Source of the DNA: an uncultured Candidatus Saccharibacteria bacterium
Lineage (GTDB): Bacteria; Patescibacteriota; UBA1384; JAGGWG01; CAZAJM01
Direction of reading: 5' to 3'
Assembly (NCBI GenBank): GCA_964485625.1
Contig: CAZAJM010000002.1
Location: forward strand, 36,167-100,166
DNA: 64,000 nt
Shown here: in pieces, positions 10,545 to 46,739 of the stretch
Layout of the letters: each line of letters starts with the position of its first letter
How positions within the stretch are numbered: position 1 is the first letter of the stretch
Translations under genes and position numbers: made by a program
Notes under the pieces: model-generated
Told to the model about the DNA's origin: nothing
Databases searched by the model: none
The model's input: only the letters and a program-made list of their open reading frames with translations

Positions 10545-10568
10545 ATATATTTATATTAATGTATTTAT

Positions 10569-10802
10569 TTACTTAACTGGGTCATAACCGCTACCACCCC
10601 AAGGATTACATCGAGCCACTCTTTTGATAGCTAACCAGCTGCCCTTTAGTATCCCATACTTTTCTATCGATTCATAGCCATACTGAGAACAGGTTGGGCT
10701 ATAGCGGCAGGCCTTAACAGGAATCAGTTTACCGAGAAGGCCGTGATCTAAAGAGAGTGTCTTCTGATATACTCTGATTAATCCTAGCAAAATATATTTC
10801 AT
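10569..10802 (-). CDS. yidD: Membrane protein insertion efficiency factor YidD
   Basis: 77 aa. YidD signature [19 protein letters not shown]...[13 protein letters not shown]. Confidence 0.8.
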
Positions 10803-11131: not shown

Positions 11132-11298
11132 GGTTGTGGAAAACTTGTTTAGATATTAACAGGCTAAGCTTAACGGGTTTTTAGGCTATTGTCAAAATAT
11201 CCTGATCGTTATTTAACAAAGGAGATTTGACTCTAACTAAAACAAATATAGTCAATGTCAAGCTAAACCCCAATAACTGAGTACTTGTAATTATGGCT

Positions 11299-11354
11299 GT
11301 GGATAATTACAATATTAACAGGGTTTGTATCTAAGTTATCCACTTGTTAATATC
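11299..11354 (+). promoter_or_regulatory. dnaA promoter region with two DnaA boxes (tgtggataa about 11299-11307, inverted; ttatccact about 11337-11345) and a candidate -35/-10 (ttgtat-N17-taatat)
   Basis: Perfect or near-perfect TTATCCACA consensus 9-mers. The second box lies inside the promoter spacer, suggesting autoregulation. Coordinates carry +/-1 uncertainty. Confidence 0.5.
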
Positions 11355-11365
11355 AGAATAACGAA

Positions 11366-12754: not shown

Positions 12755-13005
12755 GTTTGTGATTAGTTTAGTATAAGTTGTTAATAGAGTTTAAAAAACA
12801 TCATCATAATTACTTATCCCATAGTAATCCATAACAATTATCACCCACTTATCAGCAAATAATTATTAAATAAATTACTAAATTAATAGAAGTAAAAATC
12901 AATTAAATAAATCTTATCAACATATCCCCAGACCTTGTTATTACTACTATATAAATAAACTAAATACTTAATAATATAGAGCGGGTAAAAAAATAATATA
13001 TATTT
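12755..13005. other. Candidate oriC: AT-rich dnaA-dnaN spacer with four same-orientation TTATC-core DnaA-box-like 9-mers (ttatcccat 12814, ttatcaccc 12838, ttatcagca 12849, ttatcaaca 12914) and an AT-rich putative unwinding element
   Basis: Sequence inspection. Position between dnaA and dnaN, as in many bacteria. Confidence 0.5.
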
Positions 13006-14124: not shown

Positions 14125-14153
14125 GTTGGGTATATAACCAAAAGAACTACTAG

Positions 14154-15260
14154 ATGAAGTTAAGATTAAACTTAGTTAACTTCCGTAATTTTAAGAAGCG
14201 GTCGTTTGACATCAAACCACCCACTATAATCATCGGCCACAATGCTAGTGGTAAGACCAATATAGTTGAGAGTATTTTTTTACTTTCAACTACCAACTCT
14301 TTTAAAAAATCTAAGAGCAAAGACTTTGTTCTTTTTAATAAAGATTTCACTAAGATTACTTTGGAAGAGATAAAGAAAGACCAAATTAATCAATTTGAGC
14401 TTAGAATTAAGAAAGATAACTCATATAAAAAAGAGGGCTATCTCGATGAGAGACAGGTAAGCCTATCGGAGTTAATTGGTGGCCTACCGACAGTCGTCTT
14501 TGCCCCCGAAAGCCTCCATATTATTAAAGGCAGTCCCTCCCTTAGAAGAAGTTTTTTAAATTTGGTTATCAGTCAGATCGATAGCAGTTATCTAAACAAT
14601 CTTTTAAAATACAAGCAAGTAAAGGAAGAGAGAAATAAACTACTTGGTCTAATTAGTGAGGGGCGAGCGGATAAAGATGAGTTGGAGTTCTGGGACCGGG
14701 AGCTAACCAAGACCGGAGCCTATCAAATATTAAAACGACATCAATTTATTAGCTACTTGAATAAAAATATCAACAAACTCTACAACCATATTTCAAGAGA
14801 GCGGCATAAAATTAAAATAAGCTATAAGACAAACTTTGGAGAGCTTAATAAAGATAACGATGAGTTAGACCAAATCAAAGATAGCTACTCTCAGACCCTG
14901 GCTGGTAGTCTCAAAACGGATCTCAGATACACTACCACCACCAAGGGACCACATCGAGATGATATAGAGATATTAATTGACTCTAGCCCAATTGCCGGCA
15001 CCGGTTCTCAAGGCGAGATCCGTTCGATGGCTTTTGTCATTAAACTTCTAGAGAGAGATTATTTAAAAAACCAAATAGACAAGGAACCAATATTTTTGCT
15101 TGATGATCCCTTGTCTGAGCTAGATGATTTTAGAGCCAAGTACTTACTTGATAAAATTAAAGATGATAGAGTAATAATAACCGCTCTAGAGGAGGAGCTT
15201 AGAGGAATTGAGAAATATATTGATAATTTTCAAATAATTAATTTAAGTCCCAAAGAATGA
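14154..15260 (+). CDS. recF: DNA replication/repair protein RecF
   Basis: Walker A GHNASGKTNIVESI. Signature/Walker B region ...LLDDPLSELD. Synteny. Confidence 0.9.
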   Translation: MKLRLNLVNFRNFKKRSFDIKPPTIIIGHNASGKTNIVESIFLLSTTNSFKKSKSKDFVLFNKDFTKITLEEIKKDQINQFELRIKKDNSYKKEGYLDERQVSLSELIGGLPTVVFAPESLHIIKGSPSLRRSFLNLVISQIDSSYLNNLLKYKQVKEERNKLLGLISEGRADKDELEFWDRELTKTGAYQILKRHQFISYLNKNINKLYNHISRERHKIKISYKTNFGELNKDNDELDQIKDSYSQTLAGSLKTDLRYTTTTKGPHRDDIEILIDSSPIAGTGSQGEIRSMAFVIKLLERDYLKNQIDKEPIFLLDDPLSELDDFRAKYLLDKIKDDRVIITALEEELRGIEKYIDNFQIINLSPKE

Positions 15261-18195: not shown

Positions 18196-18942
18196 ATGGA
18201 TCAAAAACTACTTAAGGCCCTATCTGGGCTTAACCTGTCGGATAATGAGTCTAGAGTATATATAGCCGCTCTAGAATTGGGTTCAGCTACTGTTTCTCAG
18301 ATAGCTAAAAAAGCTGGTGTGGAGAGGGTTAATACATATAATGTTATAGAGAAGCTGATGAGTAAGGGTTTTGTCTATCAGACTGGAGAAGGAAAATTGA
18401 AAACCTACTCCGCCGTTAGCCCTAAAAGATTAGAGGCAATATCAAGATCTAGAACAGAAAATCTTAAAAATGCCCTACCCCAATTACTATCAATTGAAAA
18501 CTCAAACGAGGTTAAGCCTAAGGTTAGATATTATCAAGGCATTGAAGGAATCAAGGAGGCTTTTGAAGAAACCTTAAAGTGCGATAAAGATGAAGAAATA
18601 CTGGCGGTTGCTACCGCTGAAGGAATATATCAAGCATTAGGAGATTGGACCAGTGAATATTTAAAAAGAAGGATAGAGAAAGGTATTAAAATGAGAGCTA
18701 TAGTCGATAATTCAAAAATAGGTAAAAAGCATAAATCTAACGACAAACAGGAACTACGTACTACAAGATTAGTTGATAAGGATAAGTTTTATTTTTCTAA
18801 TGAGATCAATATATTCGATAATAAGGTAATGATCGTTTCCTATAAAGACAAGATGGGTCTAATAATTGAATCTAAACAAGTTGCCGACACTCAAAGATCG
18901 GTATTTGAACTAGCCTGGAAAGGGGCAAATAATAAATCTTAG
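18196..18942 (+). CDS. TrmB-family transcriptional regulator
   Basis: N-terminal HTH LSDNESRVYIAALELGSATVSQIAKKAGVERVNTYNVIEKLMSKGFV matches the TrmB/archaeal sugar-regulator wHTH pattern. A C-terminal domain follows. Confidence 0.65.
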   Translation: MDQKLLKALSGLNLSDNESRVYIAALELGSATVSQIAKKAGVERVNTYNVIEKLMSKGFVYQTGEGKLKTYSAVSPKRLEAISRSRTENLKNALPQLLSIENSNEVKPKVRYYQGIEGIKEAFEETLKCDKDEEILAVATAEGIYQALGDWTSEYLKRRIEKGIKMRAIVDNSKIGKKHKSNDKQELRTTRLVDKDKFYFSNEINIFDNKVMIVSYKDKMGLIIESKQVADTQRSVFELAWKGANNKS

Positions 18943-21900
18943 TAGCCAATATGGATATGGTTCCACATATGATTATTAGAAAACAGCCCTCTATTACCAC
19001 GCTCTTCTAAGGAGCCATATTTATCATAGATTAGATTAGGTCGATCTTGGTCTTCTTCTCCCTCATCGCTTAACCCATTGTAGTAGTTAACATCTTCTTC
19101 TCTAAAGACCCCTATTTGAAGAGGTAGATCTTCGGCTCTTAGAGTCCAGCCGACCAGCTCTCTAATATGTTCTCTGGTGATCTCGGTTGGGTCTTGGCAT
19201 TTAGTCTCACCGATTCCCAACAAATTACTCAAAACAGTGACTCCTAATTCATACCAATTCTGTGTTACTAAACCGACTATTAATCCACGACTAAAACCTC
19301 TAATTCCAGTTGCCTCATCTATCTCCTCTCCAATTCCAATTTGGTAGGCCATATAGCCGATGGTGCCGACTCCGACCTCCCCACCGCTAATAATACTCTC
19401 TGCTGCTCTAGCAGACTCAACCACATCTCTGTCAACGCCAAAGCTTGTTGCTAGTTGTGTATAGAACTCTCCTTCCTCTAAGTTTCCGTTCTGGAAGCCT
19501 TGGTAGATATCTCTTATCTGCCTTGCTTGACCAACTGTTATACCGGCAAATTGTTGGAACTCATCATCAAAGAACATCTCAGTCATCTCCAAGTAATCTA
19601 GATCTCCTTCAATTACATTTACTACTGCCGGATCTACTACTTCAAAACTACTGTTTAGAACACTGATTAATCTTCCGTCACCTACATTGCCATCTTCCCA
19701 GCCATTATAGGTTTCCTCAATTGCATCTATCTCGGCCCTAGTTAGGCCAATTGCGCCATCGAGCCTTAAATCTATCCAGCTACCGATTAGGGTCTGTTGG
19801 GTCTGATCTTTTATTACCTCTTGGTTAATTTCATCGAAGGCACTATCGATATTTCCGTTAAACAAGTTCGTTAGAACGGTTCTATCAGTAACTGTTGAGC
19901 CAGAAACCCCAACAAAGCTAAGTCCGGCCTCTAGGTACTCATCTTGGCCTATCTCCTCTCCCCTAATATATGAGCGGTCAAATAGATTGGAGAGAACATT
20001 GGCTTGGCTACGATTACCGTCAGTTAGAATTAGAGAGAGTCTCTCCATCCCTGCCGAGAGGGCCCGGTCTCTAGATTCCGGGTCGTTAGTAATTTGAGAT
20101 AGGGCTAGGTCTTTAGGCCAAGACAGTTCCTGCCCTAGATACCTGTCATATAGCTGGGATAACCCAGTGATTAATTGGTTGTTATCTACGTTGCCATTTA
20201 GAATTAGATCAGCGATATTAACGTCTATGTCCGGCCTTTCATCTAGGCCAACTAAATCAGCCAGTTTCTTGTTGCTTAAACCAAATAATTGAGCTTGGGC
20301 AACCCTGCGGGCATAATCTTCGGCTTTTATCTCTCCTTGATAGAGCCTGTAGGTCAACCCTCTATCTAAACCCAAAGATGAATCGGCCCAAGAGAGCTTA
20401 TCTATAACGGTCTGGTCCGGCACCTCATCAGTCTCAATTATCTGATCTAGTTCTTCAACAGAGATGTTAAAACTTGCCGCTACCCGTTCTTTGCCGTTCT
20501 GCTTAATGATCTCTTCCATATCGCCAAAAAATGAACCACTAGTTAAGCCTTTGCTCTCAACTATGGCTTGACCTACCTCTAACTTGATGTTTTTACTTGG
20601 CCCATCATACTCCCACTCATCAAACCAGCCATAGCTATTAGTGTTATCGACTCCCAACCTCTCAAGAATTAAGGCTAGTCCGGCCCTGGCAATTGCTTCG
20701 TCTGTATTAGAGCCCCCATCGACTATCGCCATAAAACTATTGCCCGGCAGACCTAGTTCGGTCTCGACATATGATGAACCGATTCGATTGACTACATCTT
20801 GCCAGTTACCGTCTTTGATCGAGTGGTAGTCATAGATTGTTGGTTGGTAGTTGCCAAAGTTAGGTCGGTATTGGTAGAAAAGCTCTTCTTCCAAACTACT
20901 TCCTGCCAATTTAATATATTCATTTAATCTTTCTTTGTTGGTTAACAGGTTTTTTAGATCTTCTGCTCCGACTTGGTAGTAATCAACCCCCGTAAGTTCG
21001 GTTAATTTTTCCCGAGTAAGATTATCTATCTGCTCGTCTTTAATCCGCTCAATTACATCTTGGCCTAAATTCTCTAGCCCCTCTTCTCTTCTCTGGTCAT
21101 CCTGGTTAGCGATAATTGATTGGACTTGAGCTTTGGAGATACCCAAAGGCAGGCTGATCTCTCCTGAGCTTATCAGACTATTTAGAAGATCAAGACTAAT
21201 ATCTTGACTACTCTCTTGATTATATGGATCTATTCCTAGGGCTCCTGATAGATGGTAGAGACCGGCGGTTAATAGTGAACTCTCTTTACTACTAGATAGA
21301 TCTGAGATTGTATCGCTAGGCAGGCCAATGCTCTTACTAAGCCCGGATAAACTTTGGGAGTTATTAACTCTAGTTCGGTAGGCCTGACCGACTAAGCTAA
21401 GCGTCTCATTGTTACTGCCCCCCAAGCTCTCTATGCCGGTCTTTCTAATAAACTGGTTGGGGTTGGTGTTAATTATTTTCTCTAGATTGTCCTCGCTATA
21501 ATCAATCCGGTAAGCGTTCTCTACTACTGCCTTGCCTAGCTCATAGTTGCTCCAATCTCCCTGCCAGTTAGAGTAGTCCAGACCTAGACCTTCTCTAATC
21601 ACCCGCAGGCCAATAGACTTTAGAATATCTTCTTGGCTACTGCCTTCTATTGAGCCTCCGGGCAGACCCAAGATCTGTTCAAGATAACGGCTACCAACAC
21701 TTAACTCTCCACTGCCGCTCCCGGCAACTATGGAGTTAATGGTGCCAGAGGGTAGGCCTAGCCCGTCTTCCAGGTGGGCCGAACCAAGATTGGGGCTATC
21801 AAGACGACTATTAATTAAGTACCTAGGATCTATGCCTAGTTCTTGGGCGATTTGAGATAGGCCCGATTCCATTAGGGCCGAGTCGATATTATGATGACCT

Positions 21901-23465
21901 CTTTGGTTACCAGGCAGGCGAATAACGGAAGCCAGATCATTTAAGTTGGGGTTTAGGTAGTTGTTAAGCCCGGGTGGCCGGTACTCTGTTTGATAAGCTA
22001 CATGTGCCGGATACCATTTGGTCTTATCACCAAATCCTAAAAAACCCTTAGTCTCACATTTATAGCTACCAACTACAGAGATATCGGCCGCTTTGCCCCC
22101 GTAGTGGGCTGAGCGGGTCGCTTCAGACTCACTAGTTACCGCCTCTTCATCTGACTTGGGGTCAAATTGAGTTAACCGGGAAACTTTAATCTGTGACCAC
22201 TTTTTAGAAGGTTTGGTAAGCTCATCTATTTTTTTAGTCCGAGTGGCCTTAGGAGACTTAATTATCTGGTAGAGTTCATCTTCGTCCACTTGATTAACTC
22301 CAACTCCCTCGTTCTCACCTTGGGCTCTCCGAGCAAGCTCATTAAGTAGTCGTAGTAATCTAATATCTATTTTAAACTCTTTGATTAGGCGAAGATCGTA
22401 TTGATTAATTGCTAGAACCGGCTCTTTCTGCCCCCTGTTAACTGCTTGGAGGGCTTTTAGAATATTTTGATTGTACTCTGATAGTAGGGTTAGGTCATCT
22501 CTTAAGCCTTCGTTGTCTGCTAAGCTCTGGCTACTATTAAGATCGGAGATGGTTGATTTGATTAGTTGGTGATTATCCAATGCCATCTCCAGGCTGGCTC
22601 GATTCCGGCCACCCATAGCTGATAGAGCAGAGAAGTTGGTTAAAATCCGATCGGTCTTAGTAGATAAGTTCTTTATTTCCCTGCTAAGCTCTTGCTTGTC
22701 TTGAGCCCGGGCAAATTGCCAGAAGCTGGTCTGGCTATCTGTCTCCTCGCTCTCCTCTTCCACTTCTTCATCAATTCCTTTAGCTACCTTTCTGGCCTCA
22801 TCGGCCGCCTTGTCACACTCGCCTGCCCAACAGACCGCCTCGGCCACATCTTGCCTGTCAGCAGCTAAGTCCTCATCTGGAAGCTCGGTTGGGGTTGAGC
22901 CCATATTACTAGCAAGATATATCAGGCCAAAAATTAATATTACTGCTAATAAAACCAACCCAATTATTGCAGCATATTCACCAATAAAAGCAATAGCCGC
23001 TCCGGCTCCTCTAGCAATAGCTCCACCGGCCCTACTAAGCAAACCCCCGGCCTTGGCTGCCTCCTTGCCACCCTTGGCAGCTTTGGCGGCATCTTTTGCC
23101 TCCTTCTTAACTGCTTTCTCACCTACATCCTCTGCTTTATCTTCAGCCTCATCTTTCGCCTTCTCTCCTAGGTCACTATCGTCTTTCTCCTGGTCTTCTT
23201 TCTGGTCCTTTTCTTCTTGATCTTTCTCTTCTTCTTTGTCCTCCTCCTCTTCCTTCTCATCCTGCTCTTCTTCATCTCTCTCTTCATCCTCATCTTCTTC
23301 TTGCTGCTGGTCTTGTCTGCCAACAGAAGTAGGCTTCTTCTTTAGGCGCTTAATAGTCTCTTCTGTGATCTCTGTCTCCTCTGTTTTTTCAACGTCAAGC
23401 TCCGTTTTAAGACGTTCGTAGTAACTATCTTCTTCTCTTTTTTTCTTTTTTTTATCTTTAGCCAT
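18939..23465 (-). CDS. Giant membrane-anchored surface protein (1508 aa): acidic/Lys-rich cytoplasmic N-terminus, one TM helix, about 1300-aa extracytoplasmic region. Last gene of the T4SS-like operon.
   Basis: Continuous ORF. N-terminal 150 aa are E/D/K low complexity. TM AIAFIGEYAAIIGLVLLAVILIFGLIYL at about 160-187. No enzymatic motif recognised. Confidence 0.6.
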   Translation of the reverse strand: MAKDKKKKKREEDSYYERLKTELDVEKTEETEITEETIKRLKKKPTSVGRQDQQQEEDEDEERDEEEQDEKEEEEDKEEEKDQEEKDQKEDQEKDDSDLGEKAKDEAEDKAEDVGEKAVKKEAKDAAKAAKGGKEAAKAGGLLSRAGGAIARGAGAAIAFIGEYAAIIGLVLLAVILIFGLIYLASNMGSTPTELPDEDLAADRQDVAEAVCWAGECDKAADEARKVAKGIDEEVEEESEETDSQTSFWQFARAQDKQELSREIKNLSTKTDRILTNFSALSAMGGRNRASLEMALDNHQLIKSTISDLNSSQSLADNEGLRDDLTLLSEYNQNILKALQAVNRGQKEPVLAINQYDLRLIKEFKIDIRLLRLLNELARRAQGENEGVGVNQVDEDELYQIIKSPKATRTKKIDELTKPSKKWSQIKVSRLTQFDPKSDEEAVTSESEATRSAHYGGKAADISVVGSYKCETKGFLGFGDKTKWYPAHVAYQTEYRPPGLNNYLNPNLNDLASVIRLPGNQRGHHNIDSALMESGLSQIAQELGIDPRYLINSRLDSPNLGSAHLEDGLGLPSGTINSIVAGSGSGELSVGSRYLEQILGLPGGSIEGSSQEDILKSIGLRVIREGLGLDYSNWQGDWSNYELGKAVVENAYRIDYSEDNLEKIINTNPNQFIRKTGIESLGGSNNETLSLVGQAYRTRVNNSQSLSGLSKSIGLPSDTISDLSSSKESSLLTAGLYHLSGALGIDPYNQESSQDISLDLLNSLISSGEISLPLGISKAQVQSIIANQDDQRREEGLENLGQDVIERIKDEQIDNLTREKLTELTGVDYYQVGAEDLKNLLTNKERLNEYIKLAGSSLEEELFYQYRPNFGNYQPTIYDYHSIKDGNWQDVVNRIGSSYVETELGLPGNSFMAIVDGGSNTDEAIARAGLALILERLGVDNTNSYGWFDEWEYDGPSKNIKLEVGQAIVESKGLTSGSFFGDMEEIIKQNGKERVAASFNISVEELDQIIETDEVPDQTVIDKLSWADSSLGLDRGLTYRLYQGEIKAEDYARRVAQAQLFGLSNKKLADLVGLDERPDIDVNIADLILNGNVDNNQLITGLSQLYDRYLGQELSWPKDLALSQITNDPESRDRALSAGMERLSLILTDGNRSQANVLSNLFDRSYIRGEEIGQDEYLEAGLSFVGVSGSTVTDRTVLTNLFNGNIDSAFDEINQEVIKDQTQQTLIGSWIDLRLDGAIGLTRAEIDAIEETYNGWEDGNVGDGRLISVLNSSFEVVDPAVVNVIEGDLDYLEMTEMFFDDEFQQFAGITVGQARQIRDIYQGFQNGNLEEGEFYTQLATSFGVDRDVVESARAAESIISGGEVGVGTIGYMAYQIGIGEEIDEATGIRGFSRGLIVGLVTQNWYELGVTVLSNLLGIGETKCQDPTEITREHIRELVGWTLRAEDLPLQIGVFREEDVNYYNGLSDEGEEDQDRPNLIYDKYGSLEERGNRGLFSNNHMWNHIHIGY

Positions 23466-23468: not shown

Positions 23469-24770
23469 TTAATAGTTTTTAGAGATTAATTCAAGGCTAA
23501 CTAACTGATTATCTGTAGTTAAATATATTTGGTTGTTATTATTATCTACCTCGACCTCTCTAACTACCTCCTTATTATCCTCTGGCCAGCCATACTCTAG
23601 TAGTTCTCCACTGTTAATATCGTATCTAAACAATTTATCTTCTTCGTCGATTCTGCCTGTTCCAATAAACTGGTTGTTGCTGACCCAGTCGATATTGTTT
23701 AGATCTAGATTAATATTTAAATTCTCCTTATTCTCACCACCTATATCCATAATCGAAAGAGGTTTTAGTCTTTCTGGGGATTGACTTAGGTAGAGAATCT
23801 TCTTGCTATCAGCACTTACCTGGGCCCAGCTAATTTGGCTGTTCTCTAGTGGTGTCCGGAGCCGATCCAAGTAGCTATCATAGATTGAGATACTTTCGCT
23901 GTTACTAATTAGAATATATTCCTTGTTTGGTGACCAAGATATCTCTGGGTCGGTATAACCACTAATCTTAGCTACCCTTCTAACATTTTTTCTCTCCAAG
24001 TCACTTACCACTAGAGAGCTCTCTGGCTCTAGGGTTGAATAGTAGTAGGCGACCTGGTCAAGATCAGGATTAATACTGATACTACCAATGCCGGTGCCCC
24101 AAAACTTAGCTGTTTGATTGAGTAGGTCGTAGCGATTAAAATCATAGAAATATGTAGCAGCACTAGAAGTATCTTTAAAAAATTTAGTGCCGGTTAATTG
24201 GTAGGGCTTATCTATTTGGGCGATAACTCCTAGGTGATCTTTGGTCCAGATAAGGTTTTTAATGTTTCTAAAGATATTTGGAGAGATCCTTTCGGGGTTA
24301 GCCCCATCTCTTCCTAGATTTAATCTCCAACAAGAGCTGTTTTTAAGATAGAAGAGGGTGTTTCTGTTTGAGTCGTAGCTTAGATACTCTATCTTACCCT
24401 TATCAAGCTCATTAAACGACGGCTCTTTCTGCAGATTTACTTTAATTGGCTCGTTGGAGAAGTAGTCGACATTAATTGTCTGTCTGTAAGTTAGATATCC
24501 AGGAGCGGAGATCATTAACAGGTGCTCTCCGGGGCTGGCAGAGAAGCCCTTGTCAACCTCTCTGTTATCCAAAGCTATACTGACCTCTTCTGGTTGGCTA
24601 ATAACTTTAACTGGTGCCTGGTAGAAAAAAAGCAAGTAAAGACCACCAAGCACCAGAACAATTGCTAGGCCGATAATTGCCCTATTAAGCCAACTTAAAC
24701 CAGCTCCTGACTTTTTAATCTTCTGGTTGGTGCTAAACTCCTTCTCTAACTTTTCTAACTGTTTATTCAT
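23469..24770 (-). CDS. Membrane-anchored TolB-like / PD40 beta-propeller protein with a PEGA-like domain
   Basis: N-terminal TM LAIVLVLGGLYLLFF. The LLMISAPGYLTYRQTINV segment resembles a PEGA domain. Repeated ...SWSPN.../...ILY.S... propeller-like blades. Confidence 0.45.
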   Translation of the reverse strand: MNKQLEKLEKEFSTNQKIKKSGAGLSWLNRAIIGLAIVLVLGGLYLLFFYQAPVKVISQPEEVSIALDNREVDKGFSASPGEHLLMISAPGYLTYRQTINVDYFSNEPIKVNLQKEPSFNELDKGKIEYLSYDSNRNTLFYLKNSSCWRLNLGRDGANPERISPNIFRNIKNLIWTKDHLGVIAQIDKPYQLTGTKFFKDTSSAATYFYDFNRYDLLNQTAKFWGTGIGSISINPDLDQVAYYYSTLEPESSLVVSDLERKNVRRVAKISGYTDPEISWSPNKEYILISNSESISIYDSYLDRLRTPLENSQISWAQVSADSKKILYLSQSPERLKPLSIMDIGGENKENLNINLDLNNIDWVSNNQFIGTGRIDEEDKLFRYDINSGELLEYGWPEDNKEVVREVEVDNNNNQIYLTTDNQLVSLELISKNY

Positions 24771-25932
24771 GAGAGTAGATTATTGTTCCACTTGAATCAG
24801 TGTGAGACAGATTACTTGCTTGATTGTATAAAGATCTATCTAACTGACAGCTATAGGCGCCTCTTGTTGTTGAACTATTAACCATAAGTGTATCTGTTGC
24901 TGGATCGTAACCTCTTATCACTATGATGTGACCATAGCTTGATCTTGATCTTTGGCAATTTGAATTGAAGTGGAATCTTTGGAATAATATTACAGGATTT
25001 TTTGCTTTAAGTGATTTCATAACAGTCGACCAACCATTTCCATTGGAGCTTACTCTGCCAACCTTCCAGGCTTTGCCACTTTGTTTTTTTAGTTGAGACA
25101 ATGCTGCTGAGGGAGTGTTAACTGGCCCACCTGAGTATGTATCATCTATTGTCCAGTTACCACCGTAGTAATTAAGCACCATGGCAACCGAAGCTCTGCC
25201 ACAAGTCATACTTGTCTTTTGACCAACTAGGGGCACATTAAGTTTAACATAGTCTCCTCTGATAATATTAGAGGCAGTAGCCGTTTTTAGACTTGGACAA
25301 GAGCCAATAATTTCATTAAAAACTTTAGGTACTACATCAAACCAATGATTGCAATTTTTTCCGCAATATATTTCTCCTATCGACCTAATGTCTGTTATTC
25401 CTTTGCTCAGATATTTTCTTTGCATATATTCAGCATGATTGGCAATTGAGGTATCGTAGTCCGGAAAATCCTCCCAGTCTCTTGGATTAGAACCATTAGA
25501 AGGTACACAAGGATAATCTCCTAATTTAGCAGTATTGCAAGTCATGCTTTGGTAATTATGAGTTGAGGATGAAGCTGCTCCGTAGTTAGTGGCATAAGTT
25601 GTTTCAGCGCCAGCAATAGCAATCATCAGGGCCGGATTCACATTATACTTCTTTCCCTCCCCGGCAAAAATTAACCCCTTATCGGCTAGAGGAGAGTCCG
25701 GTCTTTTTTTAGAAAACCAAGAGTTAAGACATTTTCCGACCTCTTCTGGATCGGCTCCTGAAGGATAGAATAGGCTGCCACTACCACCAGCCTGGGCTGA
25801 GGGCATATACCCACCAGCAATGCCGGAAGTTCTTTCGTGAAATGCAAAAGCGCCAACTGCGCCAAAGATTAGCATGGCGATACCAATAACAAAGACAATT
25901 ATTGTGGCTACTAACCCATCCTGTCTTATCAT
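24763..25932 (-). CDS. Membrane-anchored cell-wall hydrolase: N-acetylglucosaminidase-like domain plus C39/papain-like cysteine peptidase domain (CwlT/PrgK/TcpG analogue)
   Basis: The start is placed at the ATGA overlap with the upstream gene (MIRQDGL...), not the longer ORF-track start. Glucosaminidase-like VNPALMIAIAGAETTYATNYG...SIANHAEYMQRKY. Peptidase part QKTSMTCGRASVAMVLNYYG (Gln/Cys) with GHIIVIRGYD (His). Confidence 0.6.
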   Translation of the reverse strand: MIRQDGLVATIIVFVIGIAMLIFGAVGAFAFHERTSGIAGGYMPSAQAGGSGSLFYPSGADPEEVGKCLNSWFSKKRPDSPLADKGLIFAGEGKKYNVNPALMIAIAGAETTYATNYGAASSSTHNYQSMTCNTAKLGDYPCVPSNGSNPRDWEDFPDYDTSIANHAEYMQRKYLSKGITDIRSIGEIYCGKNCNHWFDVVPKVFNEIIGSCPSLKTATASNIIRGDYVKLNVPLVGQKTSMTCGRASVAMVLNYYGGNWTIDDTYSGGPVNTPSAALSQLKKQSGKAWKVGRVSSNGNGWSTVMKSLKAKNPVILFQRFHFNSNCQRSRSSYGHIIVIRGYDPATDTLMVNSSTTRGAYSCQLDRSLYNQASNLSHTDSSGTIIYSHE

Positions 25933-26627
25933 GGCGCCCTCCAAGCATAACCGACTTGATCGTGAGGATTTTTTAGGAAAAATGATCTGGATATCCATTG
26001 TACGCTGCAAGAACTCTTGCCGCTATTGTGAACTAAGAAGGCATCTTTGTTTTTATCATATTGAGTAGTTGCCATAATATGCATAGTTCCACCGGTGCCG
26101 TTTCTTTTGGGATACTTGGTATAGATAATGACAGCGTCGCCATTTCTAATGGTGTTAATTATGCTGTTCATACCATCGTTTTTATAACTTGTTCTTCTTG
26201 TCCAACTCCCCGGAACCTTTCTTTGTAGTTCAGGACCCCAAGGCCTTCTTCCACCTGACCAATAAGTAAGATCTGTTGGTTTTATGTATTCTCCGGTATA
26301 GCCCATAATAATAGCGGCAGCAGAGGTACAGCCACAGTAACCGCTTTTGAATTGTTTTAGGCAGGGTATATAGTGGTTGTTTGGGTCACCATTAATATAT
26401 GAGCCATCACCGGCTACAGATTCAATATTAACAGGTTGGTTAGGATCTGACGCAATATACTCTCCTTCTGAGGGGCTAAACCCGGCCCCAGCCACAGGCG
26501 AGTAACTAGCCAAACTAACTCCTGCTGCTATGGCTAGGTCAACCAAAAGAATGCCGGCTAAGATAAATATTCCGGCGATTAGGCAACTTACCGCTCCAGC
26601 TTGCTTATTCTCCCTGGCTCTCATCAC
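25929..26627 (-). CDS. Membrane-anchored papain-like (C39-like) cysteine peptidase domain protein
   Basis: N-terminal TM. GYCGCTSAAAIIMGY (catalytic Cys context) and MHIMATTQYD (His), resembling the C39-like fold of the next gene. Confidence 0.45.
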   Translation of the reverse strand: MMRARENKQAGAVSCLIAGIFILAGILLVDLAIAAGVSLASYSPVAGAGFSPSEGEYIASDPNQPVNIESVAGDGSYINGDPNNHYIPCLKQFKSGYCGCTSAAAIIMGYTGEYIKPTDLTYWSGGRRPWGPELQRKVPGSWTRRTSYKNDGMNSIINTIRNGDAVIIYTKYPKRNGTGGTMHIMATTQYDKNKDAFLVHNSGKSSCSVQWISRSFFLKNPHDQVGYAWRAP

Positions 26628-28404
26628 CCTCCTCCTCTTTCATCTCTAGGATCTCCTTGGGATCAGTGGTAATCATCTTGTCTTCAATATATGAGCCGAT
26701 GACTTTGATAGCGGCATGGTTTAGACCGGCAAAGAAAAGCCCTTCACCTACATCTGATTGGAGTAGTAGATATCTTTCTCCTTGGGTTAGATTAAATGTT
26801 TTGCTAACTAGATCGATTGATGACGGAGATTGTTTGAGCAGCATCTGTAGGGAGGAGTTAGAGACAATCGCCTTGCCATACTTGTTATTAAGCACATCTT
26901 CTACATCTTGACTGACCACGGTTAGACCTAAGTAATATTTTCGAGCCCTTTTAGCTAGAGCATAGAGGAACTTAGCTGAATCTTCATGTTGCATCATCCA
27001 CCAGGCCTCATCGACGACCATCAGTCTTCTTTTCTTCTCTTTTCTAATCTGGTTCCAGACGTAACCTAGAATATTGTAGATCGCCAGTGGTCTTAGCTCT
27101 TCATCTAGGTCTCTTACGGAGAAGACATTCATCTGGTTGTTCATATCGATGTTGGTCTGGTGCTTGAAGAGGCCTGAGAAGGTACCCTGGGTATACTTCT
27201 CTAATCTTCTAGCCAGGCTCTCACCATCCTTCATACCGGTTAGTACTCTCTGAAGATCTTCCAGTAGAGGTGGCTCGTTCTTGTGGGTCTCAATATTTTC
27301 GTTAATATCTTTTAGGGCATATGTTTCAAAGAGAGCTTTCTCTAAAATAGCATCTTCTTCTACGCTTAAGCCCTCCATCATCAGCCCGACTAAACCTTTG
27401 ATTCTAATAATAGTGCCTTTTAAGATTGCCTCCCCATCTTCTTCTTGGCCACCGGAGAGATCAAATGGGTTGATCCAATTGCCGGCCTCTAGGTCAACCT
27501 GTAAGTAGTTACCACCAATTCCTTCACACATCCGCTTGTACTCTTCTTCCGGGTCAACTACTATTACCTGCGTGTCATACATCATCGATCTAATAATCTC
27601 TAGCTTAACAGCGTAGGATTTTCCCGAACCAGACTTACCGAAGACAACTGAGTTGGCATTCTCCAGTTCAAAGCGGTCAAAGATGATAAGGGAGTTGTTG
27701 TTACGGTTGATTCCATAAAGAATACCACTGTTACCAGTTAGATTGGAAGAGATAAAGGGGAAGGTAGAAGACAGAGAGCCGGTATCAAAATTACGATTAA
27801 TCATTAATTTGTTTAGTCCTAGGGGAAGGGTTGAGTCAAAACCATCTTTCATTCTAAAGAGGGCTCTTTTGGTTAGAACGATTCCTCCGGCTAAGCGAGT
27901 CTCTATCTGAGAGGTGAGAGTATCTAGTTCCTCAAGGGTTTTAGCATAGATTGTAAAGTAGAGCCCAAATTGGAAGAGCTTAACCTCTCCTTTCTGTAGG
28001 GCATGCCTTAGGGATTCAACATCTTCCATAGCTGTTTCAAGCTCTGGGTCGGAGACTAGGCCCTTCTCTTTTTTCATTCGCCAACTCGATTCCATCTGGC
28101 CCAGCCTGGTCTGGAGTTGTTTCATGATCCGCTTGGTGTCTACCGGATAGACAAACATAGATATATCCATGGTAGCATCGTAGTTAATTAGGGGGGAGAG
28201 CCAGTTGGTGTTTAGATATCTTGGGTAGGTAAAGACAAAGAAGGTTTTAGCATAACGATCATTTATCTTGATATGATCGGGATTAACCAAAAAACTAGCT
28301 GGAGCGATTAGGTCTTTAACCTCAATCATTCCCTTCTCGTAGATCTCCAGGGCTTTCTGGGGGCTTAAGTCGTCATTTTTCTTCTTCTCGCCAATGCCAA
28401 ACAT
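26605..28404 (-). CDS. virB4: VirB4/TraE/ConE-type type IV secretion ATPase (ATPase core)
   Basis: Walker A VVFGKSGSGKSYAV. Walker B RRLMVVDEAWWMM (the DEAW motif typical of VirB4). 599 aa. Confidence 0.8.
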   Translation of the reverse strand: MFGIGEKKKNDDLSPQKALEIYEKGMIEVKDLIAPASFLVNPDHIKINDRYAKTFFVFTYPRYLNTNWLSPLINYDATMDISMFVYPVDTKRIMKQLQTRLGQMESSWRMKKEKGLVSDPELETAMEDVESLRHALQKGEVKLFQFGLYFTIYAKTLEELDTLTSQIETRLAGGIVLTKRALFRMKDGFDSTLPLGLNKLMINRNFDTGSLSSTFPFISSNLTGNSGILYGINRNNNSLIIFDRFELENANSVVFGKSGSGKSYAVKLEIIRSMMYDTQVIVVDPEEEYKRMCEGIGGNYLQVDLEAGNWINPFDLSGGQEEDGEAILKGTIIRIKGLVGLMMEGLSVEEDAILEKALFETYALKDINENIETHKNEPPLLEDLQRVLTGMKDGESLARRLEKYTQGTFSGLFKHQTNIDMNNQMNVFSVRDLDEELRPLAIYNILGYVWNQIRKEKKRRLMVVDEAWWMMQHEDSAKFLYALAKRARKYYLGLTVVSQDVEDVLNNKYGKAIVSNSSLQMLLKQSPSSIDLVSKTFNLTQGERYLLLQSDVGEGLFFAGLNHAAIKVIGSYIEDKMITTDPKEILEMKEEEGDESQGE

Positions 28405-28405: not shown

Positions 28406-29146
28406 TTATTTACTTTCTTTTTTAGATTTAATTACCGCTCCCATCACATCTTCCGGGTTAGCTATTTTTTTGAACTGAGCCGAGGTTGGGTTGTAGGAGG
28501 TGTATAGTAGCTCAATAATCTCCTGGGTGTTAAGCTGGACTGCTCTGATGCCAATAGAGCTTAGCCCAGAGGCTACCAGGCCTGCTCTCTGTCGCAGTTC
28601 TTTCTTCGCCGCTTCCTTATCTTTGATCTCTATCTTCTTTTTCTGTTTGCTCCTAAAACCGGCAAATAGTTTCTCAAAAGGATTTAAGGCCTTAGAGGAG
28701 ATTGGTTCATAGGGGACAACAACGAAGAAGTTCTTATCCATAATATTGGCAACATCGATTATTCGACGGACAAAGTCGGTATAGTCGGCCATCTGAGCCC
28801 GGAGTAGACTATTGGATTGGTTCTTGGTCCGCTTCTCCAGGTCTTGTAGATATCCTGTTAAGTTTAACTTTCGAGATTGAGTAATAATTTGAATGGGGAA
28901 GGAGAGAGAGTTGAGAAAAGCTTGATAGCCACCGATAATAGCGTTCTGTTCCTCCTCGTTTTTTAAGGAGAAATTAACGGCCGAGACCATTAAGACGATT
29001 CTTATGCCTCCGTTTTTTAAATAAACAAAACCATCCTCAATCCGATCGATATCCAGATTCTCTTGAGTTGGATTATATTTAGTCTCCGTAGACTCTTCTA
29101 GGCCCTCCGGGACTTCTCTGTCTTTCTCTTCTTCTTTCTTTGCTAT
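28406..29146 (-). CDS. VirB4 N-terminal-domain-like protein. Probably begins upstream of the first ATG at a non-canonical start near 29146.
   Basis: ORF track gives 28406..28990 (194 aa). The same frame stays open upstream to a TAA at 29156-29158 and encodes ...NPTQENLDIDRIEDGFVYLKNGGIRIVLMVSAVNFSLKNEEEQNAIIGGYQAFLNSL, which resembles N-termini of Gram-positive conjugative VirB4 proteins (pattern recalled from memory). A perfect SD AAGGAGG sits 4 nt before an ATA codon at 29146-29144. The gene ends 1 nt before the virB4 ATG. Confidence 0.45.
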   Translation of the reverse strand: MAKKEEEKDREVPEGLEESTETKYNPTQENLDIDRIEDGFVYLKNGGIRIVLMVSAVNFSLKNEEEQNAIIGGYQAFLNSLSFPIQIITQSRKLNLTGYLQDLEKRTKNQSNSLLRAQMADYTDFVRRIIDVANIMDKNFFVVVPYEPISSKALNPFEKLFAGFRSKQKKKIEIKDKEAAKKELRQRAGLVASGLSSIGIRAVQLNTQEIIELLYTSYNPTSAQFKKIANPEDVMGAVIKSKKESK

Positions 29147-29189
29147 ATTCCCTCCTTAATTAATATCTGCCTTCTAACTTCTAATTATA

Positions 29190-29723
29190 TCACACAGCCT
29201 CTACTTCGTTTAATGGATCTTCTAAGCCCTCTTTTCTCTCTTGGGGTGACTCAACTCTGCCCTCCGGTTCATCTTCACTGACCACCCTCTTGCCCGTATC
29301 TCTATGCCGCCAGCCGTGGGTATCGACAATCTCCGCTAAAATCTGTAGGCGGCTACGGACCTTTTTGGGGTCTTTAGTTAGCTGGTCGTCATCTTCCTCC
29401 TCATCTTCTTTAGCAATTTTAGGTAGCTCTTGCCCTTTTTTAAAGTATTGCTTTGTCCAGACGAAGATCTTGGGAGAAAAAACAAAAGAGATAAAGGCGG
29501 ATAGAAAGTAAGCAAAGTCTTGTTCTTGAACTTTTAAGAAGGCGAAGGCCAGAGCAGCGGCAGTGATTAGAAAGATTAGCAACCAGCCGGACCAATGGGT
29601 AAAGGTAGAGTAGATGATATAGTCGAGCATGCCGGCTACCAAAAGAAAAATGAACTGCTTTAAAGTCAGAGGCCCAATCACCTTATCTTCCAAGTCTATA
29701 TTTTGTGGGACTTTGTATTGCAT
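29190..29723 (-). CDS. PrgI-family (VirB3-like) two-TM protein
   Basis: N-terminus MQYKVPQNIDLEDKVIGPLTLKQFIFLLVAGML matches the PrgI-family signature (VP.[DN]I...E.K.iGp.TlrQ). Two TM helices. Immediately upstream of the VirB4 genes. Acidic C-terminal tail. Confidence 0.6.
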   Translation of the reverse strand: MQYKVPQNIDLEDKVIGPLTLKQFIFLLVAGMLDYIIYSTFTHWSGWLLIFLITAAALAFAFLKVQEQDFAYFLSAFISFVFSPKIFVWTKQYFKKGQELPKIAKEDEEEDDDQLTKDPKKVRSRLQILAEIVDTHGWRHRDTGKRVVSEDEPEGRVESPQERKEGLEDPLNEVEAV

Positions 29724-29726: not shown

Positions 29727-31814
29727 TTATTCATTTAGATTTTCTTCGTATCTACTTAATTCGCTAATTTGCTCTCTAATTACCTCTTCTATGGTTGAGC
29801 TCTCAATTCTTCCTTCGCTTATCTCCCTAGAAAGAGCCCCTATTATTTCATCAATTCTCTCTTCGGGGATATCTCCTACAGCTTCATGTTCAAGGGTTCT
29901 TTTAATCTGTTCCTTTATCTCTTTTCTGGTTGCTAATTCCTGAGTGGTAATGCCTCTAGTTTCAGTGCTAAGCACTTGAGTTGGTCTTGGGGCGTCAGCA
30001 ACAGTTCTGCTAATAGCAGTTGCTCTGGTGGAAATAGTATCATTTAAACCTATTTCTAGCGCTAATTGTTCGCTATTTGGAGCACTTCCAGTTCGACCTA
30101 CATAACTTTTAAATGCTGGTGCAGATATTGAATAATTAGAAAGTGCTCCCAAGGCACTTTCTTTGGTGTGAACCATATCTTCAGGAAGGCCCGTTACACT
30201 TACCACACGATCTACTACACTGCTTTCTAGATCACCCTCACTTCTATTTTTTATTTCGGCTTGGAGTTCTTCGATGTTGGTAATTGTTACATCAATGTCT
30301 TCTTGGCTTCTAAGGTTATCAATTGTTGCTTCAGCTATTAAATCGTAATTGCCCCCTCCTATCTCCAGGCCTGCCATTTTTTGCAAATTTTTAATATCTT
30401 TATCACTAATTTTTTCAAATAATATACCCTTTTCATCATTTATCATTTGTTGCCCGGCAGTTGTGCTAGGATCATAAAATCCCTTGCCTTTACCTGAAGC
30501 TTCACCTATACCTTGCAGTAAGCTTTTTATAAGTGGTTTGTCGTCTTTGTAATCCGGATCATTAAACATCATACCGAGGGCTCTTATTGCTGCGGTTCTT
30601 GTGTCTGCGTTGCCAGCGTAGAGTGCTCCAAGTGCGCCCTCGATTCCTCCATTTTTGATGTTCTCAGCTGAAGACATCGCTTTATCATGATATTGGGTCC
30701 TTAGCATCTCTTGACCAAGCCTATGTTTTTCCCAGCTCTTCCTAACACTTTTGCCTGTCTCTTTTGACTCAACTTCCAAGGCATTTTCTAGTATATCATC
30801 AATATGCTTTCCCCCTTCTAGACCCTTGTTAATATTACTAAAAAATCTACCAGCACCTACTGCCTGATCATCATCTCCCAATTTTCGACTGCCTACTTTT
30901 GCTCCCCACTTTAAAAAACCCCCAGCCCTTCCTAGCGATTTAGATACAGTTTCTCCAGCTTTTCCTTTAAAAAAACCTAGAACAGCTCCAGAAATGCTAT
31001 TCATACCAACTATTTGATAGGAAATTATTAATGCGGCTATGATTAAAACAATGCCACCGATAAATCCTCCCCAAGGAGTATCGCTGGCTTGCACTTGCAA
31101 GACATTTATCAACCAGACTGAAATAAATATTACCGGACCTACTAGTAAGAATTTTAAAAACCAATCAAACCATATCCCAGCAATGGATTTTCCTAGTGGA
31201 ATGAAGTACAGAACTACGGCGACAGGAGATAGGACGAACAGTATAACTATTACGTAGTATCTAACATATAAGATGAAGGTGAGCATCACCCAGAGAATAA
31301 GAGGAATTAACAAGAGTAATGCCCCGACAATTATCAAGGGAAGGCCGAGTGCTCCAACATAGGGAAAAAACAAGGCGATTACCCCAGTTAAAGTAAAGAT
31401 TCCGCCAACAGTGGTTTGGCCAGTCATGGAACTATAAAGTATCTCACCAATTCCATCCCCAGGACCAGCTAATTGAATAAAAAAATCAGTAACGGAGCTT
31501 ACAATATCTACAACTTCAATAATTAGAAAATAGCTAAAATTTGCTAGAATTATTCCAACAATAAGTCCAGGTAGCGTTCGTTTGATGTCATAGGTTTCTA
31601 AATCAATTCTAAGTAGATAAGCTAAAGCAATAAATATTAATCCAACTACGGCAACAAAATTAACCAGCCCAAGCACAACACTCCAAGCCTCTTCCATCCC
31701 TGCTGATCTAAGCTCTCCGGCAATTCTTGGATAGCCATACGACAGGTTCGGAACAGTTAAAGCTGCCATTAAAAAGAAAAAAATAATTAACTTTTTTATT
31801 TTACACAGGAACAT
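29727..31814 (-). CDS. VirB6-like polytopic membrane protein with a large C-terminal soluble domain
   Basis: Signal-like N-terminus, at least 6 hydrophobic helices within the first about 280 aa, then a roughly 400-aa hydrophilic domain. Position next to PrgI/VirB4, as for VirB6/ConG/PrgH analogues. Confidence 0.5.
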   Translation of the reverse strand: MFLCKIKKLIIFFFLMAALTVPNLSYGYPRIAGELRSAGMEEAWSVVLGLVNFVAVVGLIFIALAYLLRIDLETYDIKRTLPGLIVGIILANFSYFLIIEVVDIVSSVTDFFIQLAGPGDGIGEILYSSMTGQTTVGGIFTLTGVIALFFPYVGALGLPLIIVGALLLLIPLILWVMLTFILYVRYYVIVILFVLSPVAVVLYFIPLGKSIAGIWFDWFLKFLLVGPVIFISVWLINVLQVQASDTPWGGFIGGIVLIIAALIISYQIVGMNSISGAVLGFFKGKAGETVSKSLGRAGGFLKWGAKVGSRKLGDDDQAVGAGRFFSNINKGLEGGKHIDDILENALEVESKETGKSVRKSWEKHRLGQEMLRTQYHDKAMSSAENIKNGGIEGALGALYAGNADTRTAAIRALGMMFNDPDYKDDKPLIKSLLQGIGEASGKGKGFYDPSTTAGQQMINDEKGILFEKISDKDIKNLQKMAGLEIGGGNYDLIAEATIDNLRSQEDIDVTITNIEELQAEIKNRSEGDLESSVVDRVVSVTGLPEDMVHTKESALGALSNYSISAPAFKSYVGRTGSAPNSEQLALEIGLNDTISTRATAISRTVADAPRPTQVLSTETRGITTQELATRKEIKEQIKRTLEHEAVGDIPEERIDEIIGALSREISEGRIESSTIEEVIREQISELSRYEENLNE

Positions 31815-33261
31815 TGTTTAGTAGATTGTTTAATATATTAAAAATACTTTCAACTATTTCGTTTACCCACTTCTTTAATTTTTCCGTGATTGATTTTAAA
31901 AATTGATTACCCCCCTTTAAGCTTCCTCTATCAGTCTGGTCATCAACAGTTAGCATTAGTGAATTAAAGTTCTCTCTCTCTTTCTTTACTATTTCCAATA
32001 AATTTTCATCTTGAGAAGCTAAACACTCTCTATATTCGATATATTTGCTTAAATAGTTTGAGGCTAGATAAAGTTTTTCCCAATCTTTTTGTTGATTTTG
32101 GTTATAATTAAGTAGTCCAAGCAGGACATCTGGGGTTACCTCACTTAGTTCTGTTACACAAGTTGCCAAATCAACAAACTTATTATATTTAGATGTTTCG
32201 CTGTTAACTTGATTTGATATAGCGGTTTTTGTTAATCCAGATTTACTTTTTCCGGTACAATAAGGTATTCGATCGACAATTTCTTCATGATCAGCCCAGG
32301 CACTAGTTATTGTTTTTTCTGTTTCATGTATTATATTATTCATTTGTTGATAGGTGCCAGTGTTTATACTAGACAAGCCTGCATTGGCAAAGAAGCTAAG
32401 AAATAAATTTTTATCCTCTTGGAAGCTAAGAAGCAATAAGTCTGGGTCGTCGAATATCACATTGTTGTTTTCTGACCACCAATTATTAGCTTGCTTTTTT
32501 ATTTGGCTAATAATCTCTTTCCCATTGTCTTGTGCTTGATAATTATTTTCCAAATTTTTGTTAGTGCAATAATCAATTGCATCTTGAGAGGCTTCTCTTT
32601 GATGTAAATTATCAGTTGTATTTAGCTTGGCCCCATTAGCATAAATGTCTTTGGATAATTTTGCTAAAGTAGGATTATCTTTTTCATCAATAATATCAAA
32701 TTTATATGTTTGAAACGGTCCAGTGAACCATTGGAGCTTCCTAACTATTTCGTCTATAACATTAGTTGTGTCAGGTTGGTTGTATTGAAAAGAGTAATCA
32801 GATTCATCCCTGTCTGTGTGTTTTACCAGAGCCAAAACAGATTTGTTGGATACAAATAACACGCTTCTTTTATCACTTTCCAGTATGTACCAATTTGCAT
32901 CTACCATTCTGTTCGCTGAAAGCGGATCATTCGGGTCAAACCTTTCTGTTGATCTAGGAGGCTGCCCTCTGTATAAAGATCCTAGACTAGAAGCTGGCCC
33001 CTTGAAATAATAGACTTTATCAGTATCATCAATTGTCAATTTTATTTTTTTAGTATCTGATTCCGGCTCTATAATTAGGTCAAACTGATAATCTCTAGAG
33101 TAGCTTAAACTGGGTAAGTCATCAATATTAATACCTTTTGTTTTTGTCGGATTTATTAAAATTATAGACGTAACAAAAACCAATAAAACAAAAATAGGAA
33201 AAAAAGCTAGCAACAAATTTTTTGTATTTTTTTTATTGTTCTTTCTGTTTTTTCCTTTCAC
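31801..33261 (-). CDS. Bitopic membrane protein (486 aa), unknown function. Possible VirB8-like scaffold analogue.
   Basis: Basic N-terminus, single TM LLLAFFPIFVLLVFVTSIILI, large extracytoplasmic domain. Translationally coupled within the cluster. Confidence 0.4.
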   Translation of the reverse strand: MKGKNRKNNKKNTKNLLLAFFPIFVLLVFVTSIILINPTKTKGINIDDLPSLSYSRDYQFDLIIEPESDTKKIKLTIDDTDKVYYFKGPASSLGSLYRGQPPRSTERFDPNDPLSANRMVDANWYILESDKRSVLFVSNKSVLALVKHTDRDESDYSFQYNQPDTTNVIDEIVRKLQWFTGPFQTYKFDIIDEKDNPTLAKLSKDIYANGAKLNTTDNLHQREASQDAIDYCTNKNLENNYQAQDNGKEIISQIKKQANNWWSENNNVIFDDPDLLLLSFQEDKNLFLSFFANAGLSSINTGTYQQMNNIIHETEKTITSAWADHEEIVDRIPYCTGKSKSGLTKTAISNQVNSETSKYNKFVDLATCVTELSEVTPDVLLGLLNYNQNQQKDWEKLYLASNYLSKYIEYRECLASQDENLLEIVKKERENFNSLMLTVDDQTDRGSLKGGNQFLKSITEKLKKWVNEIVESIFNILNNLLNNVPV

Positions 33262-43782: not shown

Positions 43783-43862
43783 ATGAGAAGATGTTAACAT
43801 AGGCTATCTGATAAGTCAATCATCGACCAAGAAAATTATGATATAATTAGATTAAGCTATAT

Positions 43863-46713: not shown

Positions 46714-46739
46714 ATTTCTGATATAATAGAGCTAACGAT

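Follow-up and report, generated by a model that had tools for sequence, protein, structure and literature searches.

Where does translation of the small gene in front of virB4 begin, and does this gene form an independent unit or the detached first part of a broken virB4? Both questions are raised by a gene cluster for a type IV secretion system (T4SS) in a 64,000-nt stretch of DNA (referred to here as the window) from an uncultured Candidatus Saccharibacteria bacterium (assembly GCA_964485625.1, contig CAZAJM010000002.1). A 194-aa open reading frame (ORF), which encodes a relative of the N-terminal domain of VirB4 and is here called trsD, ends directly in front of a gene for a 599-aa VirB4 ATPase. 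Upstream of its annotated ATG, the frame stays open for 55 codons, back to the TAA at 29158-29156, and no ATG, GTG or TTG is present in frame between this stop and ATG 28990. An ATA codon is found 4 nt behind a perfect Shine-Dalgarno (SD) sequence, and no other AUN near-cognate codon occurs from the upstream stop up to PEGL, a conserved motif that begins at codon 13. The initial annotation had pointed to the open extension, to the ATA behind AAGGAGG and to the single nucleotide between the two ORFs (TAA, one T, ATG 28404), and all three are seen in the sequence. The relevant features are listed below; coordinates are positions in the window, and the trsD and virB4 genes are read on the minus strand.

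29146-28406, minus strand: trsD-like gene, encoding the N-terminal domain of VirB4 as a protein on its own (246 codons, then the stop TAA at 28408-28406)
28990 to 28406, minus strand: annotated 194-aa ORF, from ATG 28990 to the TAA ending at 28406; its ATG (28988..28990) is Met53 of the extended product
29157-29151, minus strand: SD sequence AAGGAGG, followed by the spacer GAAT at 29150-29147
29146-29144, minus strand: ATA, proposed initiation codon (codon 1) of trsD, 4 nt past AAGGAGG
26605..28404, minus strand: VirB4 ATPase gene, 599 aa, with its ATG 1 nt past the trsD stop and without an SD
29184..29192, minus strand: TGATATAAT, an extended -10-like promoter box, in which the TGA is the stop codon of the upstream gene prgI

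The best explanation, which we regard as probable, is a two-gene VirB4 module in which the SD drives initiation of trsD at AUA, or at AUC in sister lineages, resulting in a reduced output of TrsD. The evidence for the position of the start comes from the codon that related lineages carry at the place of the ATA:

Window, L001 and L002: ATA
L003 (protein P0001): ATG
L004 and L005 (P0002): GTG
L033 and L034: ATC
L006 and L035-L046: ATC

The closest full-length homologues begin with MAKEKENKKSSEVPEGLE (P0001) and MSEKKDQKQSSEIPEGLD (P0002) where the window reads IAKKEEEKDREVPEGLE; the nearest orthologues start with MAK or MSE, and many family members have MAK in place of the IAK of the window. 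The window sequence, with its ATA, recurs without any difference in two Logan assemblies, each of a different run (SRR15425351 and SRR15425350). The ATC-bearing sequences were obtained by exact-sequence cluster look-ups and contig retrieval and represent two sister lineages, seen on a total of 15 contigs in separate samples of JGI and Logan; their start regions read 'AAAGGAGGCGGT ATC GCA AAA' (L033 and L034) and 'AAGGAAGGGAGAATAAT ATC GCT AAA' (L006 and L035-L046). All 25 more distant loci have a canonical start upstream of the same motif. L022 and L032 carry an identical 'AAGGAGGGAAT' followed by GTG GCC, that is, the same SD with the same 4-nt spacing, and L017 and L031 combine a strong SD with TTG, so that ATG, GTG, TTG, ATC and ATA all occur behind a strong SD at the homologous site across the family. 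Scans of genome and metagenome contigs with the extended protein yielded no further members of the clade with ATA or ATC starts, but relatives of at most 50% identity, all with canonical starts, and two short fragments. The orthologues also show that the N-domain gene is a stand-alone gene, with a canonical codon or ATC at the ATA position of the window. The public gene calls differ by lineage, starting at a TTG at codon 31 or at an ATG at codon 48 or 53, and give proteins of 194 aa (P0004, NCBI/Logan) for the lineage of the window and of 219, 202 and 199 aa for the sister lineages, compared to approximately 246 aa for the extended product.

Two further observations concern start codons. At codon 48 (29005-29003), the window reads GGC ATA AGA (Ile48), and all four related lineages have a Met ATG at this place, which makes it a second ATG-to-ATA difference; both in-frame Met codons upstream of Met53 are ATA in the lineage of the window. 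The other case is a distant TrsD homologue with 49-51% identity to the window protein, P0097 (202 aa as called; L047:1416-1503, GCA_041890195.1, JBEEQD010011174.1); here, too, a canonical start is absent upstream of a conserved motif, ATQDFLKI, and an in-frame ATA is located 3 nt past GAGGG. This is possibly an independent AUA start; an out-of-frame GTG and an A7 run, which could reflect an indel error, and an atypical gap of 400 nt after prgI call for caution.

The extension bears the marks of a translated sequence. Between the window and L033, the synonymous divergence (dS) of the extension is 1.15 and the non-synonymous divergence (dN) 0.10, a ratio of 0.087, and the remaining gene has a dS of 1.44 and a dN/dS of 0.030; for most other pairs of lineages, dS is saturated and not estimable. 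In the block from PEGL to Met53, differences at the first, second and third codon positions amount to 6/2/15, 7/4/25, 5/4/20 and 10/2/17, and the extension is free of stops and indels across the saturated lineages. PEGL is encoded by CCG GAG GGC CTA, CCA GAA GGG TTA or CCC GAA GGC TTA and is thus kept through synonymous changes, as is YNPTQ (codons 24-28). Since PEGL is conserved in this way, translation must begin upstream of codon 13. The suspicion that the true start lies upstream of Met53 is therefore borne out by the ATG or GTG that orthologues have at the same codon and by purifying selection across the extension, and the orthologues do not begin at Met53 with unconserved sequence in front of it. 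Tryptic peptides within residues 2-52 of the extension include EVPEGLEESTETK, YNPTQENLDIDR and IEDGFVYLK.

The presence of an AUH codon (ATA or ATC) at this site is older than the window lineage itself. The three AUH lineages form a clade in 86% of 300 bootstraps of a neighbour-joining (NJ) TrsD tree, in which the window and L033 group together in 92% and the clade is sister to the lineages with ATG and GTG. As the two closest sisters have ATC rather than ATG, the non-ATG state must be older than a divergence with a dS above 1. ATC is found on either side of the first split in the clade, and the simplest history is one change to AUC, followed by a change from AUC to AUA in the lineage of the window. 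Most likely, the AUH start was inherited and arose once, as AUC, in the ancestor of the three lineages. trsD shares with conserved AUH-start genes the lack of a canonical start, the homologous position behind an SD and the conservation in related lineages.

Profile and structure comparisons reveal what the extension contributes to the protein. The 599-aa protein matches the CD1110 family (NF045971) with 371.6 bits, above the curated cut-off of 325, over profile positions 184-728 of 752; this match is partial because the N-domain is a separate gene, and the 599-aa protein does not itself hold the VirB4 N-terminal domain. The extended TrsD covers positions 11-136 of 752 of CD1110 (E=1e-5) and positions 99-284 of 894 of VirB4_plasma (NF045975, E=3e-10). 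It also matches the TrsD/TraD family NF041427 of the staphylococcal pGO1/pSK41 type over positions 24-197 of 201 (38.5 bits, E=1e-9); the score is far below the cut-off of 200, which makes the protein a distant relative of pGO1 TrsD outside the narrow subfamily. All NCBIfam matches of the extended TrsD begin at residues 22-36. When both proteins are concatenated, residues 22-809 of the resulting 845 aa align in a single stretch to positions 99-877 of 894 of VirB4_plasma, and residues 37-792 align to positions 19-723 of 792 of TIGR00929 (VirB4_CagE). Both matches cross the junction at 246/247 and start upstream of Met53, so that the coverage of VirB4 models is continuous across the junction. 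The initial annotation had given 247 aa for the extended product and about 846 aa for the pair; the numbers are 246 and 845, and its statement that the pair has the size of a full-length VirB4 holds. PF26593 (TraC-like) is precomputed for P0004 and all 120 homologues listed, and was not matched in our own Pfam search of the window proteins.

An AlphaFold2 (AF2) model of the extended TrsD, built from a 119-sequence alignment, has a mean predicted local distance difference test (pLDDT) score of 80.8. In a Foldseek search against the PDB, the best 14 matches are all TrwK/VirB4 of plasmid R388 (probability 1.00, E 4e-4 to 1e-2), with modest query TM-scores of 0.30-0.47; a sequence search of the PDB with the 119-sequence profile returned nothing, and the link to VirB4 structures comes via the fold search only. 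By homology, fold and its position directly upstream of VirB4 in a T4SS cluster, the protein is a stand-alone VirB4 N-domain. Of the residues ahead of Met53, R49 does not vary at all in the alignment, and Q28 and G46 reach a conservation of at least 90%. The model places strands at residues 33-37, 40-43 and 48-54 with a pLDDT of 92-94 and shows residues 1-25 as disordered. A start at Met53 would mean the loss of R49, Q28 and G46 and of these strands. The PEGL[ED] motif (29099-29110, residues 13-16) lies within the disordered Lys/Glu-rich tail and is kept down to around 60% identity (P0001-P0011); it may serve as a short docking site for another protein, e.g., PrgI/VirB3 or VirB4.

The initiation signals of trsD differ from those of its neighbours. 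AAGGAGG occurs seven times in the window (14.6 copies are expected by chance), and the copy in front of trsD is the only one of the seven that is intergenic according to the ORF map; the GGAGG closest to the ATG of Met53 lies 16 nt upstream of it. An SD is absent from most of the approximately 50 window genes; trsD, with a strong SD in its leader, departs from this pattern. The TGATATAAT box is present in four copies, compared to 1.3 expected, and each of them lies a short distance ahead of a start codon of the same strand. In front of trsD, it is kept in the window, L003, L004, L006 and L033 even though the flanking non-coding sequence has diverged, which is consistent with a role as trsD promoter and would give a leader of approximately 30 nt. 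A simple scan for -35/-10 promoters did not report the box because no good -35 element is present. The leader is predicted to be unstructured, with a minimum free energy of -5.5 kcal/mol (z=+0.7), no better than shuffled sequence. A riboswitch or thermosensor in the leader was considered and dropped, given this folding and an Rfam search of the window that returned one tRNA and nothing else. TATAAT or TGATATAAT lies 6-15 nt ahead of many start codons of the window (e.g., 7947-7962, 43839-43863, 46719-46740), which suggests that leaderless mRNAs or mRNAs with very short leaders are common in this genome. Judged by Pfam coverage, none of the approximately 45 other ORFs of the window has an N-terminally cut family match, except for a H+-PPase that runs off the window edge.

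The following mechanism is proposed. The TGATATAAT box, whose TGA is the prgI stop, would serve trsD as a promoter of its own and yield an unstructured leader of around 30 nt. The AAGGAGG would place the 30S subunit on the AUA 4 nt downstream, and initiator fMet-tRNA would read AUA with a mismatch at the third position, so that the protein would start with Met. Initiation at AUA is expected to be inefficient and sensitive to IF3, which the strong SD would partly compensate, and the net effect would be a built-in lowering of TrsD synthesis. VirB4 synthesis would perhaps be lowered too, if both genes are translationally coupled across TAAtATG. Such coupling is plausible, since virB4 starts 1 nt past the trsD stop and lacks an SD; however, the missing SD weighs little, as most genes here have none. 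The conserved AUA and AUU starts of S. aureus infC, ccpN, cvfC1 and citZ, all of which have extended SDs, reach approximately 10-30% of the expression obtained with AUG (PMC13009471). The efficiency of AUA, AUC and AUU in E. coli is 0.1-3% of that of AUG; AUC was among the codons examined there by mass spectrometry, and its product had an N-terminal Met (Hecht et al., bioRxiv 063800).

Several points weigh against this explanation. The case for initiation at AUA is built on comparative genomics, and the reduced expression of TrsD as well as the coupling to virB4 are likewise read from sequence. SDs are seldom used in this genome, and the window does not include the 16S rRNA 3' end, where the anti-SD is located. 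The monophyly of the AUH lineages relies on an NJ tree of 246 aa with 86% support. An efficiency of 0.1-3% of AUG, as in E. coli, could be too low for a component that was reported to be essential in another Patescibacterium. Finally, the runs of L001 and L002 may sample the population of the metagenome-assembled genome (MAG); they exclude an assembly error, but not a variant fixed within one population.

The same data bear on other explanations of the start. An error of sequencing or assembly, or a mutation from ATG to ATA in the very recent past, would require a single G-to-A step from ATG, the window has a second change of this kind at codon 48, and the MAG and the two Logan runs may stem from one study or population. 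However, three assemblies agree on ATA, the two closest sisters have ATC on 15 contigs from separate samples, and the non-ATG state predates a divergence with a dS above 1, with no decay of the extension; this reading is largely refuted and has become extremely unlikely. It is very unlikely, too, that the annotation is correct and translation starts at ATG 28990, in which case the 156 nt upstream would be either a leader that is not translated or what is left of an N-terminus in decay. Met53 is the first canonical start and the one chosen by gene callers for P0004, and since most genes here need no SD, the missing SD at 28990 is not decisive. Such a start is at odds with the coding-type conservation of the extension (dN/dS of approximately 0.09, third-position bias, no stops or indels), which holds the invariant R49 and three core beta-strands and to which full-length VirB4 profiles align from residue 22-37 on. 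It would also leave unexplained why all 25 more distant loci have a canonical start upstream of the same motif and why callers chose different internal starts in each sister lineage, with codon 31 being no conserved start. Among the options that the initial annotation had left side by side, a genuine rare start codon is thus favoured by the comparative data over sequencing error, recent mutation and gene decay.

The extension could also be translated from another entry point, either from an internal near-cognate codon (CTG31, ATC33 or ATT36) or by reinitiation coupled to prgI at or near the AUA without free binding of the 30S subunit. The CTG, ATC and ATT are in frame at codons 31, 33 and 36, codon 31 is a TTG in L006 and L004, and prgI ends at 29190 on the same strand, 43 nt upstream, making co-transcription possible. 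Yet PEGL (residues 13-16) and YNPTQ (24-28) are conserved by synonymous changes upstream of codon 31, no SD is found near codons 31-36, and codon 31, where JGI placed a TTG start for L006, reads CTG in L033 as well as in the window and CTC in the ATG-started L003. Ribosomes reinitiating after prgI would depend on the AUA and its SD all the same, which makes this option a variant of SD-driven initiation at AUA rather than a true rival, and the conserved TGATATAAT box suggests an independent transcript. Taken together, entry at another point is considered unlikely. A different objection would be that both ORFs are a single VirB4, which either an artefactual frameshift has split or the cell joins at TAAtATG, through programmed +1 frameshifting or readthrough of the stop. 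The two parts are just 1 nt apart and together rebuild a full-length VirB4 without gap or overlap. However, in each of the five close lineages, trsD has its own stop and virB4 its own ATG, with the MFG[IF]G start kept, at gaps of 1, 1, 3, 4 and 6 nt, and the offset ranges from -26 to +36 nt across the 25 more distant loci. With a gap and a relative frame that differ between relatives, there is no support for a frameshift artefact or for programmed frameshifting. A search with the extended TrsD found 581 homologues, of which the best 120 listed have 194-330 aa and are nearly all stand-alone proteins of 220-330 aa; those with a named source are labelled as Patescibacteria lineages. The VirB4 ATPase has 7987 homologues at E<=1e-100, and most of those among the matches listed have approximately 600 aa. 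In addition, a survey published in 2025 counts 1,664 cases in which trsD adjoins virB4 (PMC12102498). A single split gene has a negligible chance of being correct. The initial annotation had allowed for both a frameshift artefact and a real two-gene arrangement; the former is not upheld, and the latter is native, lineage-wide and the already published norm in Patescibacteria, where it is described as TrsD plus VirB4.

The genes surrounding the TrsD-VirB4 pair fit a T4SS cluster:

29190..29723, minus strand: prgI, PrgI-family (VirB3-like) membrane protein gene directly upstream of trsD (Pfam PF12666 PrgI, E=7e-11)
29727..31814, minus strand: 695-aa polytopic membrane protein, presumed VirB6-like (hydrophobic sequence; syntenic in relatives)
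24763..26627, minus strand: two overlapping genes for C39-like peptidase and glucosaminidase-domain proteins (Pfam; syntenic in relatives)

The PrgI-family gene is syntenic in every related locus. A fusion of trsD with prgI was rejected, because the frames differ, the TAA at 29158-29156 is in frame and the conserved promoter-like box lies between the genes. No Pfam match was obtained for the 695-aa membrane protein, whose VirB6-like role is presumed from its position only. The products of 24763..26627 match Peptidase_C39_2 (E=1.4e-14 and 5.5e-6) and Glucosaminidase (E=4e-5) and are presumed to be VirB1-like cell-wall hydrolases. Two other proteins of the cluster, one of 1508 aa (18939-23465, minus strand) and one of 486 aa (31801-33261, minus strand), have no Pfam match whatsoever and are likely lineage-specific surface or channel components. 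The region 9334-15260 is the neighbourhood of the replication origin, with jag/KhpB and yidC on the minus strand and, after them, the plus-strand genes dnaA (11366-12754), dnaN and recF. The T4SS cluster (approximately 34296-18939, minus strand) lies 7-23 kb from dnaA, which matches the tendency of this cluster to sit near the origin in Patescibacteria (PMC12102498). Elsewhere in the window, a 242-aa ORF (55331-56059, minus strand) amid housekeeping genes has part of an IS200-like Y1 transposase domain (Pfam Y1_Tnp, E=1.5e-6).

For the annotation, these results mean that trsD extends from 29146 to 28406 and encodes 246 aa, and that 52 residues are missing from the current call. As long as database entries are truncated, structure predictions, profiles and interaction models of Patescibacteria T4SS that use them would be wrong at the N-terminus. 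Conserved starts different from AUG, GUG or UUG are rare in bacteria, with two confirmed cases in E. coli and four reported in S. aureus, and where studied, they mark genes with a deliberately limited or regulated dosage. This suggests that the level of TrsD, and perhaps the TrsD:VirB4 ratio, may be tuned in this lineage. It is tempting to go further and to regard the AUC/AUA start as a selected, IF3-sensed throttle that ties the TrsD-VirB4 motor to the translational or growth state and that could work thanks to one of the genome's very few strong SDs, or, more broadly, as a sign of weak start discrimination by the ribosomes and IF3 of Patescibacteria; this idea is speculative and rather doubtful. 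If the broader version were true, AUH starts would be more common in Patescibacteria genomes than annotation shows, and the distant homologue at L047 would be a possible further case. Regardless of this, the family offers a natural series of AUG, GUG, UUG, AUC and AUA at one homologous site for studies of start-codon selection in bacteria with reduced genomes.

Compared to known systems, the architecture of the locus is no different from that of TrsD and VirB4 in other Patescibacteria, for which TrsD/TrsE of pGO1 (MPF_FATA) serve as prototype (PMC12102498). The survey describes TrsD as remotely homologous to the N-terminus of VirB4 and as the most abundant T4SS component of Patescibacteria, for which 2,272 TrsD genes have been published; TrsD is essential in Southlakia epibionticum, and this T4SS type was reported to be essential for the epibiotic growth of another Patescibacterium (PMC12102498). 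The same stand-alone N-domain is encoded upstream of a VirB4 of around 600 aa, PrgI/VirB3-like and presumed VirB6-like genes lie upstream, and the cluster is chromosomal and close to dnaA. What is new here is the truncation of the annotation by 52 residues and the non-canonical start; the split itself is no news. The full-length VirB4 proteins of monoderms (NF045971, NF045975, TIGR00929) align end to end with the concatenated 845 aa but, unlike them, the N-domain and the ATPase are separate polypeptides here, each gene with its own stop and start. The closest counterparts of the start itself are E. coli infC and pcnB (AUU) and S. aureus infC, ccpN and citZ (AUA) and cvfC1 (AUU), which likewise have a near-cognate AUH codon at the AUG position, a strong and close SD, conservation among relatives and an expected reduced initiation that is sensitive to IF3. 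In contrast to these genes, trsD encodes a T4SS component of an uncultivated Patescibacterium, uses AUC or AUA instead of the usual AUU and is known from sequence alone. As most genes of this genome lack an SD, trsD stands out more than such genes would in Firmicutes, and with its AUA/AUC start, it adds a well-supported case to a phenomenon that is known but rare.

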